Shown in pieces: positions 6,233 to 22,942 of a stretch of 29,932 bases of DNA (its first letter is position 1; every line of letters begins with the position of its first letter). Below the pieces are notes generated by a model. It saw nothing but the letters and a program-made list of their open reading frames with translations, had not been told where the DNA came from and ran no database searches. The position numbers and the translations under genes are program-made. Source of the DNA: a virus (taxonomy: Duplodnaviria; Heunggongvirae; Uroviricota; Caudoviricetes); the IMG/VR virus record IMGVR_UViG_640753024_000007, positions 1 to 29,932 of that record, one strand, 5' to 3'.

Positions 6233-6517
6233 ATGGCAAAATTTACAGTCAGGATCGAACTTCGCGATTCCAGTTCCGCTGATTACGATAAGCTTCATGA
6301 ACGAATGGAAGCAAAGGGATTCTCCAGAACGATTACAACCTCTTTAGGGAACACCTACCGTCTTCCTAATGCCGAATATATATATTCAAGCAAGAATGAA
6401 GACAAAGAATCTGTTGCTGACCTTGCTGAATCAGTGGCCTCAAAAGTTAAGAAAAATCCCGGTGTTCTTGTTACCGAATCTAATGGGCGCTATGTAAAAA
6501 ACTTAGATGATGCTTAA
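6233..6517 (+). CDS. Hypothetical protein (94 aa)
   Basis: GGAGGA RBS 4 nt before ATG 6233; charged, Lys/Glu-rich soluble protein. Confidence 0.6.
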   Translation: MAKFTVRIELRDSSSADYDKLHERMEAKGFSRTITTSLGNTYRLPNAEYIYSSKNEDKESVADLAESVASKVKKNPGVLVTESNGRYVKNLDDA

Positions 6518-10146: not shown

Positions 10147-10439
10147 GGGTGAGAGTTTATATTGCCGGTCCAATGACGGGATATGAAAATTTCAACCGTG
10201 AGGCGTTTCACAAGGCGGAAGATGAACTGAAACGGGAAGGGCATACCGTCTTAAACCCGGCAGTACTTCCGGACGGGCTGACACAGCCACACTACATGGA
10301 TATCTGCATGGCGATGATTCGTTGCGTGGATGCGATTTACATGCTGCAAGGCTGGCAGCGGTCAGCAGGCGCTAAGGCGGAACTGGCGCTGGCGGAGAGG
10401 CTGGGGCATGCAGTTATTTTCCAGGAGGAGGTACAGTGA
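10143..10439 (+). CDS. DUF4406-family protein (nucleoside 2-deoxyribosyltransferase-like fold)
   Basis: N-terminal VYIAGPMTG signature; GTG start with an AGGAGG RBS. Confidence 0.65.
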   Translation: MRVRVYIAGPMTGYENFNREAFHKAEDELKREGHTVLNPAVLPDGLTQPHYMDICMAMIRCVDAIYMLQGWQRSAGAKAELALAERLGHAVIFQEEVQ

Positions 10440-10642
10440 ATATCGACGCAACAATGACGATTGGTACGGCCCTCAATACGGGGCTGGCGCTTCTTGGTTG
10501 GTGCTACGTCATGTTCTGCTCATGGCGGTGGCTGTCACTGATGTTACTGAAAAAATGGAATAAACGCTGTAAACAGACGCAGCGGCAGAAGGCAATGAAT
10601 GCGTTTTTTGAGACCTTCGATATTGACAGTATGGAACCATGA
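10436..10642 (+). CDS. Small hydrophobic protein (68 aa)
   Basis: GTGA overlap with the preceding stop; AGGAGG RBS; predicted TM segment LALLGWCYVMFCSWRWLSLML. Confidence 0.45.
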   Translation: MNIDATMTIGTALNTGLALLGWCYVMFCSWRWLSLMLLKKWNKRCKQTQRQKAMNAFFETFDIDSMEP

Positions 10643-10819
10643 GAGCCAGCTCGCGTGATTAGCAGAGGTGACGTTGTAATTCTTGTATACCGGAGTGAAG
10701 AGAAAAATGAGCGAAATTAACTATCAGGCACTGCGTGAAGAAGAGAAAGCATAATCCAAATCTGAATAATTAAATTCAGCACTGTAAATAAAATTTAATC
10801 CTTAACCGGAGGAGTATCT

Positions 10820-11032
10820 ATGTTAAATACACAAAAAAACATTAACGCGGAAAAATATAACGAGTGGGTGAAAAAATTTTCTGAGCAGATTTTTAAAATT
10901 ACTGGCGACGAGAATGCGGCAAAAAGTGAATTAGAACCATGGACACCTGAAGGAGCCAACCCAAATTATTGCTGGTGGGATGTTGATCCAGTTGATGCTG
11001 CAAATGAAGCCATGAGTTACCACAACGATTAA
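10820..11032 (+). CDS. Hypothetical protein (70 aa)
   Basis: GGAGGAG RBS; AT-rich; followed by a GC hairpin at 11041-11060. Confidence 0.5.
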   Translation: MLNTQKNINAEKYNEWVKKFSEQIFKITGDENAAKSELEPWTPEGANPNYCWWDVDPVDAANEAMSYHND

Positions 11033-11070
11033 TGTCAGGAGGCCGCCCGAAAGGGCGGCTGTTCCGCTGT

Positions 11071-11625
11071 TCAATTATCTAAAATTGTGCTAAATCTTTT
11101 TATTACCATTAAGAACGTTATAACAGTGATAAAAAAGGATGTATAGGCTAAAAAGCTAACAATATATGCAGGTGCGCGAAAATACCATTTCATTAAATCC
11201 ACTGCATTGTCAGGCAGGAAATATATTATCACTGAAAATATAACCAATACTATTGAAGTTAATATTGCATAAGCGACGTTGTGGCATAACTGCTCATATA
11301 TGGTTTTGTTAGTGTTTAATGATATCAATTTGTCTCGGGATTTGTTTCCTTCAATTATGTCTGATATCTTAGTGATGGTTTTTTGTTTTTGTTCATAAAT
11401 CATTATTACTGCACTCATTAATAGTGCTGTTGTAATAGCCCCGAAGTTAACGAAGACGGAAGCAATTGCCGGTTTCATTATTCCGTATGTCCGGCACAGA
11501 ACGAAAGAAAGAGATAACGGAACAATAAAATGTACGATAATGTCGCTCATCAACATTGTTCCACGCTGATCTGACATTGTTTTGTAGTGTTTTATTATTA
11601 CACCCAGCACATTTATTTTATTCAT
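11071..11625 (-). CDS. Four-TM small membrane protein, candidate effector of a two-gene module
   Basis: 184-aa ORF with four hydrophobic helices; its ATG overlaps the stop of the upstream 310-aa gene (ATGA); very AT-rich. Confidence 0.65.
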   Translation of the reverse strand: MNKINVLGVIIKHYKTMSDQRGTMLMSDIIVHFIVPLSLSFVLCRTYGIMKPAIASVFVNFGAITTALLMSAVIMIYEQKQKTITKISDIIEGNKSRDKLISLNTNKTIYEQLCHNVAYAILTSIVLVIFSVIIYFLPDNAVDLMKWYFRAPAYIVSFLAYTSFFITVITFLMVIKRFSTILDN

Positions 11626-12554
11626 ATAATCACCCCTTTGTTTCCGCTATGCAGTTCTAACAATATATCATTAGAAAGGTTTTTTATCGTGTCATGAAGT
11701 GCTGTTAGATCAGGTATGCCTGTTAATGGGTCGATTTTTAAATCATTATCATCTAACTCTGCAGAAATTCCTTTTTTTAGTATAGTCTCATAATTGAAAA
11801 CGACAGTCCGACTGCCGAGTTGTAAGCTTACTTTTATTGCATCACATTTATCTTCAATAATCTCAATGATGTTTCCTATATTCTTGTTTCTTAAATCCCT
11901 GAAACTTCCGAACATGCCATCGTTTGCTTTTATTATTAAGTCTGTCTTGATGTTTGTTTTGTTTTGACCAAAGGAATCAGCAATGTCTTTTGGTGCTTTA
12001 TATCCTTGAGCCTTAATTTGTTTTAATTCGGAATTGAGAATATATTGAGGGATTTTCTTATGATGTAATGGATTGATTCTTGCTTCGAGTTGAAATTTGT
12101 TTTTTAGATATTCAGTGATAGAATCAGAAAGGACACCTCGGGCAGAAATATTATCGCAAGAGTGGAATGCAATAATTCCTTCTTCAAGGGCGTCTGGTAG
12201 GTATATTAAAATATAACGTTCTTTGAGTGTTACATCATAAGCAGTTGTCCTGTAGTGGATTTTTTTGAGTTTTACATCTTTTATTTCACTGCTTTCTCCA
12301 TATTTCCCAACTTTTATATAACCATATATAATTTTCTTTGAGTTATCAAAGTGAAGTTTAGCGTGTTGTTCCAGAGATATTTTAGTTTTGGATACGCCAA
12401 ACTCGATGGGGGTGTTTTTATATAGAGTAAAATAATCAACAAAAAGTTCATATGCCGTTTTTTTATTACTTAAACCCAATTCATTAAGTTTTTTGCTGGC
12501 TCGACTGCCTTTATGGGTCAATACGCGGAATGAATAGAAATTAACGCTGTGCAT
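11622..12554 (-). CDS. 310-aa soluble protein of unknown function, candidate sensor/partner of the membrane protein
   Basis: AAAGGA RBS; Lys/Ile/Asn-rich, AT-rich composition unlike the flanking prophage genes. Confidence 0.65.
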   Translation of the reverse strand: MHSVNFYSFRVLTHKGSRASKKLNELGLSNKKTAYELFVDYFTLYKNTPIEFGVSKTKISLEQHAKLHFDNSKKIIYGYIKVGKYGESSEIKDVKLKKIHYRTTAYDVTLKERYILIYLPDALEEGIIAFHSCDNISARGVLSDSITEYLKNKFQLEARINPLHHKKIPQYILNSELKQIKAQGYKAPKDIADSFGQNKTNIKTDLIIKANDGMFGSFRDLRNKNIGNIIEIIEDKCDAIKVSLQLGSRTVVFNYETILKKGISAELDDNDLKIDPLTGIPDLTALHDTIKNLSNDILLELHSGNKGVII

Positions 12555-12980
12555 GAAAAGTCCTTTTGAACATATAGGAATATACTAGAACATAAATAGA
12601 TGCAATGCATAAAGGAAAAGCTACCGCAGGGCGCACTCACCCACCGATAGCTCTTAACTGCTTGTTTGTAAAAGATAATACATAAATTTGGGTCTGTGTA
12701 AAGAGGTAAGCATCGTCAGGGCAAGGGAGATGTGTTAGGCAATATTGGTAAAATTTACGTTGAGGATAAAAACGGTTTGCGGGAAAAGGAGAGTTAAGTA
12801 GAATTGCTGCGGGTGCTTGAGGCTATCTGTCTCAGGCATGAACACCAAAAGGCAGATAGAGAAAAGCCCCAGTTAACATTACGCGTCCTGCAAGACGCTT
12901 AACATTAATCTGAGGCCCAATCTATGTCTCACAAATGTAGGTTAGCCTCTTACGTGCCGAAAGGCAAGGAGAAGCAGGCT

Positions 12981-13136
12981 ATGAAGCAGCAAAAGGCGAT
13001 GTTAATCGCCCTGATCGTCATCTGTTTAACCGTCATAGTGACGGCACTGGTAACGAGGAAAGACCTCTGCGAGGTACGAATCCGAACCGGCCAGACGGAG
13101 GTCGCTGTCTTCGCAGCTTACGAACCTGAGGAGTAA
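12981..13136 (+). CDS. hokD: Hok/Gef-family type I toxin
   Basis: MKQQKAMLIALIVICLTVIVTALVTRKDLCEVRIRTGQTEVAVFAAYEPEE matches the Hok family and the HokD/RelF sequence as I recall it; AGGAGA RBS; an in-frame upstream extension from 12924 occupies the mok position. Confidence 0.85.
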   Translation: MKQQKAMLIALIVICLTVIVTALVTRKDLCEVRIRTGQTEVAVFAAYEPEE

Positions 13137-16202: not shown

Positions 16203-16967
16203 ATGGAAGAACAGCACGGTAATTACTTTATAAAACGAATTCAGTTGATTGGAAGAGGTGCATTTGGCTTTGTTGAACACGTTAAGGTTTACAACCTCAA
16301 CAAGGGTGAATGTGGGGATTATGCTAGAAAGGTTTTAGCCCCCGAAAAACCAGAGCTTTTGGCGCAAATAGAGCAGTTTAGAAGGCGTTTTAAAAGGGAG
16401 GTCGTGTATCAATCACATTGCGTACATAGCAATATTGTTCCTATTTATTTGTGCGATTTGTTTGCCGAGAATCCATGGTTCATTATGGATAAAGCAGAAT
16501 GTGATCTTGAGCACGAAATAACGAACAACCTTCTTACAACAGATCAAAAAATTTCAATAGTGAAAATGGTATTAGATGGTGTAGCTCACATCCATGCGAA
16601 AGGCTATTTACACAGAGATATAAAACCATTTAATGTCTTGCGATTTAGCGACGGAACATACAAGGTGTCTGATTTTGGTCTGGTAAAAGATACAAATCCC
16701 GAAGGGGATACCACTAAATTGACCGAGATCGGTACCCGTATGGGAAGTACAAGATATATGGCTCCCGAGATTTTATATAATGCCGAGTATTCAGTTAAGA
16801 CTGATGTTTATGCGGTGGGGCGGTTAATTGAGGACTTAAATTTAGATGATAAAAAAATAAAGCCTATCATAGCGAAGTGTACCAGGATGGATAAAGATGA
16901 TAGATATCAGACAATAGATGATGTGGCGTTTGATTTTGTGCATTCTTTTTTAAGGAGTGAGTCATGA
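16203..16967 (+). CDS. Hanks-type Ser/Thr protein kinase (kinase domain only)
   Basis: Gly-loop GRGAFGFV, beta3 Lys in YARKVL, catalytic loop HRDIKPFN, DFG, APE; AT-rich. Confidence 0.85.
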   Translation: MEEQHGNYFIKRIQLIGRGAFGFVEHVKVYNLNKGECGDYARKVLAPEKPELLAQIEQFRRRFKREVVYQSHCVHSNIVPIYLCDLFAENPWFIMDKAECDLEHEITNNLLTTDQKISIVKMVLDGVAHIHAKGYLHRDIKPFNVLRFSDGTYKVSDFGLVKDTNPEGDTTKLTEIGTRMGSTRYMAPEILYNAEYSVKTDVYAVGRLIEDLNLDDKKIKPIIAKCTRMDKDDRYQTIDDVAFDFVHSFLRSES

Positions 16968-17707
16968 TTCAGCTGATAGCGACTTCATCATTCTCGTATC
17001 CAAAAGAACCAGGTAGGGTCAACGAAGATTCATTGCTTCCTCCCAAAATTGTAGGGGATGGCATCTTATTTGCCGTAGCTGATGGTGTAGGTTCATACAC
17101 TGGTGCCAGTCAGGCTTCATCAATGGCAATTGCTGAGCTTTCAGCATTGACAAGCTTATCTTTTGACACAGTTCCGGATGTATTTGATGAAGTTAAGCGA
17201 AAGGTTATGTCGTTAGCTGATGTTAATGATGAGTTCGATAAAGCTGCTACTACACTTACGTTTTGTTATGTTTGTGATAGCGGAATTATTATTGGTCATA
17301 TTGGTGATTGTCGTTTGTATTGCATTGGAGAGAAGAAAGCATACCAATTGACGAAGGACGATACCAGGCATCAGATGCTAATTGATCAGAATATTTTTAA
17401 ACCCAGAGATTTGAAGGATAAACCGGGCAAAAATATCTTAACGACGGCTATAGCCTCAAATGTTGATATGGAATACGACTGTGATTTTATCACATGGAAA
17501 GATTTACCTAGTATTAACGGGGTATATCATCTGTGTATCATGTCTGATGGGGTTCATAACGTTTGGGAAAAACGCCCCAGATTTACATCAAATACGATGA
17601 GTAATAGTCAGAAGTTTTCTAATGGCATTTTGCGTCGTATAGAGAGAGCCGGACCTGATGATGACTTTTCTTTAGTAAGTATAATGGTGCGTGTGACGTC
17701 AGATTAG
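16964..17707 (+). CDS. PP2C-family (PPM) Ser/Thr phosphatase
   Basis: ATGA overlap with the kinase stop; metal-binding motifs NEDS, AVADGVGS, GDCR and SDGV. Confidence 0.8.
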   Translation: MIQLIATSSFSYPKEPGRVNEDSLLPPKIVGDGILFAVADGVGSYTGASQASSMAIAELSALTSLSFDTVPDVFDEVKRKVMSLADVNDEFDKAATTLTFCYVCDSGIIIGHIGDCRLYCIGEKKAYQLTKDDTRHQMLIDQNIFKPRDLKDKPGKNILTTAIASNVDMEYDCDFITWKDLPSINGVYHLCIMSDGVHNVWEKRPRFTSNTMSNSQKFSNGILRRIERAGPDDDFSLVSIMVRVTSD

Positions 17708-21428: not shown

Positions 21429-22511
21429 ATGATAGTCGATAAAAATGGCAGACCTTTTCCGCAACAGACGGAAAAAAAACGCGCACTGAATGACAGCGGG
21501 CGGATCCCCTACGACTCTGCCGGTTTCTCGCACGGTTCGGTGGTGGGCTGGAACCCGGTACTGTGGTCACCGGACAATGAAGTGAATATCTGGCGTAACC
21601 GTATGGTTGCCAGAATGCGCGACCTTGTCCGCAATGACGGCTGGGCGAATGGCAGTATCACCCGTCTGCTGGACAATGCCATGGGGGTGGTTTTTCGCCC
21701 GAGGATGAAGCCTGACTACCGGATGCTGGCAGAGATGACCGGCAACCGGGCATTTGATGCAGACTGGGCGGATGAGTACGGGCGCTGTGTGGAGGCACAC
21801 TGGCGCAACTGGGCCAGTGATGCCGGGTGTTACTGCGACCTTGAACGCAGACAGACCCTGCCGCAGCTTTTCCGGCTGGCATTCCGCCACAAGATGATCG
21901 ACGGCGATGCGCTGGCGGTCATCCACTGGCGACCGGACAGAATAGCCCCTGGTCGCGGGCGTTACGGTACGGTGGTACAGGTGATTGACCCCGACCGGCT
22001 GAGTAACCCGAACGATGCGTTTGACATGCCGCATATTCGTGGCGGTGTGGAAATTGACGCGGACGGGGTGCCGGTAGCCTATCACATCCGGTCCGCACAC
22101 ATGGGGGACTGGTGGAGCGGCAGTGACACGATGCACTGGGAACGCGTGCCGCGTGAAACGTCGTGGGGAAGGCCGGTGGTGGTGCATGACTTTGATCATG
22201 ACCGTGCGGGCCAGCATCGTGGTGTCGGTATTCTCAATCCCGTGGTTCAGCGTCTGAAAATGCTTATCAAGTACGACCAGGTGGAGCTGGAAGCCGCCAT
22301 CATCAATGCCATGTTCGGTTTTTTCATCACGTCGCCCTATGACCCGAAACTGACAGAAGATCTGATGAGTGACGCGGAGGTGATTAATGGCTACCAGGAT
22401 GCGCGCATGAAGTATCACGATACTAACCGGATTTCGATGTCGGGCGTGCGTATTCCCATCACGTTCCCCGGCGAAGAGCCAAAAGCCGTGAGCGCCGCCC
22501 GACCGAGGTGA
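21429..22511 (+). pseudogene. Portal protein (lambda gpB-like), 3'-truncated by deletion
   Basis: 360 aa versus about 530 for lambda B; recalled B motifs conserved (VRNDGWANG, CYCDLERRQT, DRLSNPN); ORF terminates where capsid-E homology begins in another frame. Confidence 0.75.
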
Positions 22512-22942
22512 TTTTCACGCCGTCAGCCTGGACAGCGTTCATGAACGACAGTTTCATTCGTGAGAACGCCATCAACATGCCCGCCCTGAACCCGACCAGC
22601 AACGTGGTGAACCCGGGGACGCAGATCAACACCGGTGCGGTGTACAAGGGCAGGTGGGGGAACTTCAACCTCTGGCTGTATAACGACTGGTTCATCGATC
22701 CGGATGACGGAACCGAAAAACCGATGCTGGATGACGGCAACGTCATTCTGACCGGGGCGGCCCTGATGGGGACCCGCGCGTTCGGCTGTATCATGGATCC
22801 GGCGTTTAATTACGGCCAGATGGCCTATGCCCCGAAAATGTGGGATCAGCAGGATCCGGCACAGCGTTTCCTGATGATGCAGTCGGCACCGATTGTCATC
22901 CCGTCCCGTGTCAATGCGTGCCTGTGCGCGTCGGTGGTGTGA
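22508..22942 (+). pseudogene. Major capsid protein (lambda gpE-like), C-terminal third only
   Basis: VIFTPSAWTAF, GTRAFGCIMD and FLMMQSAPIV resemble the C-terminal part of lambda E as I recall it; no N-terminal two-thirds present. Confidence 0.7.

Follow-up and report, generated by a model that had tools for sequence, protein, structure and literature searches.

A prophage-borne gene pair as a candidate Rex-type sensor and membrane-effector module

A coupled gene pair in an AT-rich segment of a lambdoid prophage

Two adjacent genes, here called A and B, lie in the virus record IMGVR_UViG_640753024_000007 (Caudoviricetes), whose 29,932 nucleotides make up the stretch of DNA analysed here (the window). 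The window is 100% identical to sequence of the enterotoxigenic Escherichia coli (ETEC) O139:H28 strain E24377A (NC_009801.1), in which the products of both genes are annotated as hypothetical. Gene A (11622-12554, minus strand), delimited by an open reading frame (ORF) scan, encodes a soluble protein of 310 aa with a basic pI of 9.1 (WP_000556393.1; phrog_15676), and gene B (11071-11625, minus strand) a predicted inner-membrane protein of 184 aa with four transmembrane (TM) segments (WP_001033793.1; phrog_15250). A sequence-only reading of the window had put this pair forward as a RexAB-like abortive-infection module, exchanged as cargo at a defence hotspot. Its description of the gene layout was borne out: the ORF scan and the junction sequence confirmed two minus-strand genes with an ATGA stop/start overlap at 11622-11625, in which the ATG of B lies on the TGA of A (ATA TGA / ATG AAT), an arrangement suited to translational coupling. 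Shine-Dalgarno-like motifs precede both genes on the minus strand, AAGGGG about 9 nt 5' of the ATG of B and AAGGA (12561-12565) 6 nt 5' of the ATG of A. The pair sits in an AT-rich island, as had been noted, with a G+C content of 0.31-0.35 over 11000-12600 versus 0.50-0.57 on either side.

This island coincides with an exchanged segment of about 2 kb (10752-12764), which also includes a 70-aa ORF (10820-11032, plus strand). Homology of the Stx phage VT2-Sakai to the window ends at 10751 and restarts at 12765, while homology of the K-12 prophage Qin restarts at 12967. The Qin gene order is relB-relE-hokD-rem-ydfU-Q, so that relBE occupies the slot of A/B, just as the sequence-only reading had stated. 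Among 5426 complete E. coli genomes the hok flank was found in 4947 and the cassette in 37 (0.7%), and a megablast search of phage records matched the flanks and not the cassette. Judged by these sequence comparisons, the A/B cassette is horizontally acquired, exchanged prophage cargo. The claim of a defence hotspot fared less well than that of exchange: in other prophages that we sampled, the hok slot held QueH, small hypothetical genes, DUF551, DUF4014, Ea22-like genes or relBE, and with contents this mixed we rejected a dedicated defence hotspot and regard the site as an accessory slot of the general mosaic kind. The positions 5' of hok/sok at which homology stops are few and recur over thousands of E. 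coli genomes (window ~12758-12791 and 12967), a pattern that points to a favoured recombination junction at the border of this element.

Genes A and B are kept together across distant bacteria and phages

A word-indexed homologue search reached Enterobacterales proteins only (33 clusters for A, 60 for B). An exhaustive hidden Markov model (HMM) search with a profile of A yielded 581 representatives at E<=1e-3, 117 of them at E<=1e-10, which puts the A family at no fewer than 581 clusters at 50% identity; its members are almost all 296-335 aa long. We then compared the gene pair in 12 lineages, comprising the window, Enterobacter lambdoid prophages, a moron in a myovirus tail module, the Pseudomonas inovirus PfAC16, a Halomonas islet, two metagenome-assembled genomes and five metagenomic contigs (of which one is likely from Bacteroidota and another likely betaproteobacterial). 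In all 12, an A gene of ~310 aa is immediately followed by the gene for a partner of 168-201 aa, and each partner matches the B HMM (E 5e-12 to 3e-81) and has four hydrophobic segments. In 11 of these lineages the two genes share 1-16 nt and in the twelfth they stand 1 nt apart, the identities of A and B co-vary across lineages (Pearson 0.70), and the G+C content of the pair falls below that of its surroundings at each of the 10 loci that have 1.8 kb or more of flank (L009 and L011, which have too little flank, were left out). Since full-length homologues between 95% and ~20% identity keep the pair arrangement, we take A and B to be real genes.

Several loci have features of their own. At L007 (CP179928.1, a 2.97-Mb genome; 5066-6561) the pair is diverged, with 28% identity in A, and forms the moron of the myovirus tail module; it is flanked by a tape-measure-like gene with an SLT domain and by a Dit-like gene, and shares the strand of the structural genes. 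At L012 (5001-6254) the family member P0152 has 417 aa, with an N-terminal extension of ~110 aa that has no Pfam match, and its pair adjoins two GmrSD (DUF262) genes. Genes for QueH (epoxyqueuosine reductase), an unexplained phage-borne member of the queuosine pathway, recur in the lambdoid nin-region slot: they adjoin A/B in Enterobacter prophages (L003-L006, 6899-7562) and lie directly 5' of hokD in E. coli (L023 and L024, 2788-3468).

Scans of Pfam, NCBIfam and PADLOC returned no match for A or B, A having no Pfam match even at E<=1 and both proteins scoring zero matches in PADLOC-DB v2.0.0. Among 125 relatives of A there was no consistent Pfam (E<=0.01) or PADLOC identity, PADLOC giving scattered single chance matches; 12 relatives of B likewise received no family from the three resources, with zero PADLOC matches. 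In PHROGs the two proteins fall into two families of unknown function, and a literature search on their accessions and PHROG identifiers found nothing. The family is thus uncovered by curated models and by the literature searched, in line with the sequence-only reading, which could assign neither protein; these scans also gave no homology to a housekeeping or structural phage family.

Protein A probably has a very remote RexA/RdgC-like fold

A has no TM segment (maximum 19-residue Kyte-Doolittle score 1.08). An AlphaFold 2 (AF2) model of the protein reached a mean pLDDT of 68, with residues 1-165 and the C-terminal helix modelled confidently and 165-260 poorly; it places seven strands and two helices within residues 1-162, followed by an inserted region in the middle and by the C-terminal helix (283-301). 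Across 125 sequences G83 and G86 are invariant, Y7, G78, P120, G279 and P281 are conserved near 90%, and an acidic P-x-DIAD motif is conserved too. No conserved enzymatic motif was found in this alignment, the conserved positions being structural glycines, prolines and tyrosine together with DIAD.

RexA of phage lambda consists of a globular domain split in two (residues 1-139, 248-279) and, between its parts, a dimerization domain (143-234) (PMC11077077; structure 8TWQ), and the order of secondary structure predicted for A matches this architecture, with the middle region of A being the part that is poorly modelled. When 125 diverse relatives of A were aligned as a profile with 30 RexA homologues using hhalign, 142 columns were co-linear (E 0.0024, probability 12%), A 106-249 running alongside RexA 83-236. 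Among the matched motifs are EGIIAFHS/GDTIGFART and INPL/IEPL, the latter lying just N-terminal to RexA's hinge. None of 140 RexA profiles shuffled in blocks attained the score of this alignment, 29.0 (their mean was 16.6, sd 2.7, maximum 24.4), and reversing the RexA profile gave 15.4. The A-family HMM matched several RexA homologues over the same region, with a best E of 0.0017 among 36 sequences versus 0.025 for reversed controls.

Other comparisons weigh against kinship with RexA. The reciprocal search of A-family sequences with a RexA HMM did no better than its control; the A-family profiles A1 and A3, run against Protein Data Bank (PDB) sequences, missed RexA (8TWQ) at E<=10; and Foldseek, a check that the sequence-only reading had proposed, found no significant match of the A model in the PDB, to RexA or otherwise. 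Neither A nor its relatives matched the RexA family model (Pfam PF15969) significantly, and single-sequence hhalign runs against lambda RexA and lambda RexB gave nothing. Because the profile, shuffle and Foldseek results are mixed, we conclude that A probably has a very remote RexA/RdgC-like fold and, as far as its sequence goes, is not a member of the RexA family. RexA is also characterised by stable dimerization and non-specific binding to DNA, features on which the one observation for A is its basic pI. RdgC itself (2OWL) differs from A in being a stand-alone housekeeping protein without a membrane partner, and no sequence similarity between the two was detected.

Protein B is a predicted four-helix membrane protein

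Turning to B, the hydrophobic segments fall at about residues 26-47, 52-77, 113-135 and 151-175, and the positive-inside rule predicts an N-in/C-in topology with a charged cytoplasmic loop of ~35 aa (78-112). Its AF2 model shows four long helices (pLDDT 85), which, together with the lack of TM segments in A, upholds the architecture that the sequence-only reading had described, that of a soluble protein of about 300 aa followed by a four-helix membrane protein. N5, H13, P36, L68, L69, N116 (in TM3), M173 and K176-R177 are invariant, and the TM2 motif VNFGAITTALL is conserved. A fold search with the B model was uninformative. There was no Pfam match of B to RexB (PF15968), and the B profiles A2 and A5 reached at most 0.5% against lambda RexB in hhalign. 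If the model of A is right, B is a small four-TM membrane protein encoded directly 3' of a RexA-like gene, as expected of a RexB-type partner.

Comparison with lambda Rex and other two-gene systems

Like A/B, lambda RexA/RexB is prophage-borne and consists of a soluble-protein gene followed by the gene for a small four-TM membrane protein. The details differ. RexB has 144 aa and B 184 aa, with no similarity between them, and lambda Rex lies beside cI, whereas A/B in the window neighbours hok within the nin-like region, at a distance of ~2.3 kb and six genes from the repressor; the homologous pair of PfAC16, unlike that of the window, abuts the repressor. The rexA and rexB genes are separated by 15 nt (36260-36274), while A and B overlap by 4 nt. 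Rex systems are sensitive to the A:B ratio, a property that the translational coupling of A/B fits.

The Rex-like systems described to date number only five, and the criterion applied to them is that both genes are needed for exclusion and that excess RexA causes RexB-dependent growth arrest or membrane damage (PMC12894663). One precedent is RexABpp of Pseudomonas putida prophage P1 (PP_5643/PP_5644; Rosendahl et al. 2026), which was validated experimentally after near-identical bioinformatic evidence, and in which RexBpp likewise lacks RexB similarity or an informative fold match (PMC12894663). PP_5643, however, reached an HHpred probability of 98% to RexA, as against only 12% in hhalign for the A family, and the primer-derived ends of RexBpp (MLIGQLANP... 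/ ...LYYLGYKLQE) lack the conserved KIN...H and LMILKR motifs of B. The actinobacteriophage systems Sbash gp30/31, CarolAnn gp44/43 and Butters gp30/31 are encoded by prophages and exclude heterotypic phages, each pairing a membrane protein with a soluble one that is RexA-like. We liken A/B to them by description; their sequences are very far from lambda Rex, and their hosts and families are others; in the mycobacteriophage Butters pair (gp30/gp31) the roles are reversed (PMC12894663).

Kiwa resembles A/B in composition, pairing the four-TM KwaA with a soluble KwaB of ~300 aa (DUF4868), but has the opposite gene order, kwaA then kwaB, to the soluble-first A/B. No sequence similarity to KwaA or KwaB was found through PADLOC or Pfam for A, B or their relatives. 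The comparison suggested by the sequence-only reading came out negative as well: hhalign against authentic Pf phage proteins gave 0.4% for A with KwaB and 0.1% for B with KwaA, and with the order reversed in addition we rejected membership in Kiwa.

Genomic setting and candidate function

In Pf prophages, the slot to the left of the repressor holds Kiwa and ShosTA (PfAC02a), Avs3 (PfAC11) or an A/B-family pair (PfAC16). PfAC16 ORF1 (311 aa) is 22% identical to A (E 1e-21), while ORF2 has 179 aa; both were left hypothetical in the Pf phage paper (PMC11878078), because PADLOC has no model for them. Elsewhere, one homologous pair adjoins two GmrSD genes, another lies directly 3' of a methyltransferase and ResIII/DEAD helicase pair and 5' of a Ser/Thr kinase gene, and a third has an ImmA-like gene on one side and an HNH gene on the other. 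A defence role for A/B is probable on the grounds of position and precedent. The cassette falls short in sequence tests of RexA and RexB and resembles Rex in fold, architecture and setting, which makes it a candidate relative of the Rex kind. The RexAB-like module of the sequence-only reading is hence retained for its architecture and its weak RexA profile match, and given up as membership of the RexA/RexB families; we put at about even the chances that A/B is a Rex-type sensor-plus-membrane-effector anti-phage module. Somewhat below that we place the wider proposal that A/B represents a large, phylum-spanning branch of Rex-like immunity carried by lambdoid, myoviral and filamentous prophages and by chromosomal defence islands.

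As a Rex-type module, A/B would be a self-contained two-gene cargo of a decayed lambdoid prophage, expressed in the lysogen. A would be a cytoplasmic protein without enzymatic activity, its split-domain fold resembling RexA/RdgC; it would probably be a DNA-binding dimer and would sense an intermediate made by the phage (nucleoprotein, replication or recombination). B, a four-helix inner-membrane protein, would be kept in fixed ratio to A by translational coupling. Triggered A could then activate oligomers of B, which would compromise membrane potential or integrity, so that the infected cell would arrest and phage growth be aborted, with lambda RexAB and RexABpp as precedents (PMC12894663).

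The direction of signalling might also be the reverse, with B sensing perturbation at the membrane or at phage entry and A clamping phage DNA to block replication or recombination, or with B sequestering a toxic A in the manner of Butters. The nearest folds to A, RexA and RdgC, are DNA-binding clamps (PMC11077077), and Butters documents that a Rex-like system can have reversed roles (PMC12894663). In Pf phages A/B occupies the slot of Kiwa, which is also a pair of a four-TM and a ~300-aa soluble protein, and B offers A possible docking surfaces in its N-terminal helix and in a large, conserved helical hairpin on the cytoplasmic side. A Kiwa-like logic is countered by the lack of KwaA/KwaB similarity and by the soluble-first gene order, however, and the conserved polar residues of TM2/TM3 in B (N60, T65, T66 and N116) suit an effector that lines a channel no less well than they suit a sensor; on balance we think such a reversal unlikely.

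Nor need the cargo serve defence. RexA has a second activity in modulating the lysis-lysogeny switch, and A/B could do likewise, confer a membrane-related benefit on the lysogen or act in addiction or stability; alternatively, its likeness to RexA could be the coincidence of a generic alpha/beta fold. The pair occurs, however, outside prophages near GmrSD, restriction-modification-like and HNH genes, and is also found in an inovirus and within a myovirus tail module; this distribution beyond lambdoids speaks against a function bound up with the lambdoid switch. In the Pf hotspot A/B replaces Kiwa, ShosTA or Avs, and coincidence of fold has to contend with an hhalign score above its empirical null, so that these explanations, too, appear improbable. 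A far smaller likelihood attaches to A and B being non-functional, as chance frames in AT-rich DNA, which yields long ORFs more easily, or as remnants of a host prophage that has indeed decayed (partial portal and capsid genes, a DUF4752 pseudogene). Set against this are the homologues of both proteins in distant bacteria, full-length and constant in size, the confident B model and the Shine-Dalgarno-like motifs before both genes; conservation effectively excludes a non-functional pair.

Should the wider proposal of a phylum-spanning branch be true, lambda Rex would be one small twig of a widespread group of modules that join an RdgC-fold sensor to a four-TM effector, and the diversity of the family could show what Rex-type sensors recognise. 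The trigger of RexA is still a puzzle after 70 years, on which a large sister family would help if validated, with hundreds of natural variants to map the trigger and the sensor-effector interface. Validation would also add an entry to defence catalogues for genes that PADLOC leaves hypothetical, for example in the Pf phages of P. aeruginosa isolates from cystic fibrosis. The family is a recurrent moron in ETEC, Salmonella, Klebsiella, Enterobacter and Pseudomonas prophages, which gives it relevance to host range in phage therapy. One more Abi-like prophage pair would hardly surprise a specialist; what sets this family apart is its size, its lack of an entry in any defence catalogue, its occurrence in prophages of clinical relevance and the prospect of enlarging the very small group of Rex-like systems. 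The candidate is cheap to test.

Expression signals

The pair is transcribed divergently from hokD, as had been noted, opposes the early-right operon of the prophage and has a promoter-like site of its own. The best sigma-70-like candidate (12675-12702, minus strand) reads TTTACA-16 nt-TATTAT, matches 10 of 12 consensus positions and lies ~110 nt 5' of the ATG of A; it is a consensus match only, with no enrichment over shuffled sequence. To its right is the hok/sok type I toxin-antitoxin locus (12811-13136, plus strand), in which an Rfam sok match covers 12811-12986 and the hokD coding sequence 12981-13136; it is a conserved right flank outside the A/B module. The native promoter region of 12555-12920 proposed in the sequence-only reading does contain the best candidate, but because the hok/sok RNA element begins at 12811 the control region of A/B is confined to 12555-12810.

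At the other end, a hairpin with a perfect 7-bp G+C stem (GCCGCCC-UUUC-GGGCGGC; 11042-11059, minus strand) stands 12 nt past the stop of B, within the 38-nt gap between B and the convergent 70-aa ORF. A U-tract is absent on both strands, so the hairpin is not a canonical intrinsic terminator, and the surrounding region folds no better than shuffled sequence (z -0.8); it is possibly an element that marks the transcript end or stabilises it. No canonical terminator was found 3' of B. A terminator-like site within A (11801-11817) and repeats across the cassette region look like chance occurrences.

Neighbouring genes and variant alleles

The E24377A prophage adjoins ompW and begins with int-xis-exo-dicB-rha, followed further on by cI-like/cro/ydaT and the replication genes. 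The order continues with DUF977, DUF4406, DUF4752, the 70-aa ORF and, on the opposite strand, B and A, to the right of which come hokD, rem, DUF968, rusA and Q. The DUF4752 gene of the left flank (10436-10720, plus strand) is a pseudogene with an internal stop in E24377A and is intact in E. coli DS26-1. The convergent 70-aa ORF (WP_000935426.1, phrog_4659), within the AT-rich cargo segment, is a separate unit, because it is missing in some E. coli strains that carry A and B (their matches begin at ~11035). In DS26-1 (NZ_CP035879.1; L025 1323-2907) an IS1 element is inserted in the 5' end of A, leaving 285 codons, and also removes the promoter region; B is intact, which makes this a natural A-knockout allele.

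Further to the right (21603-22942, plus strand) lie a short portal gene and a major capsid gene that survives as a fragment without its N-terminus, so the prophage is defective and the cassette has been retained within a cryptic prophage. In the early-left region, at 6233-6517 (plus strand), lies an orphan gene for a GhoS-like type V antitoxin (endoribonuclease), with no adjacent ghoT annotated. Directly 3' of the Q antiterminator gene, RefSeq annotates a Ser/Thr protein kinase gene (16203-16967, plus strand) that overlaps a PP2C phosphatase gene (16964-17707, plus strand), a moron-like pair reminiscent of phage-encoded exclusion kinases.
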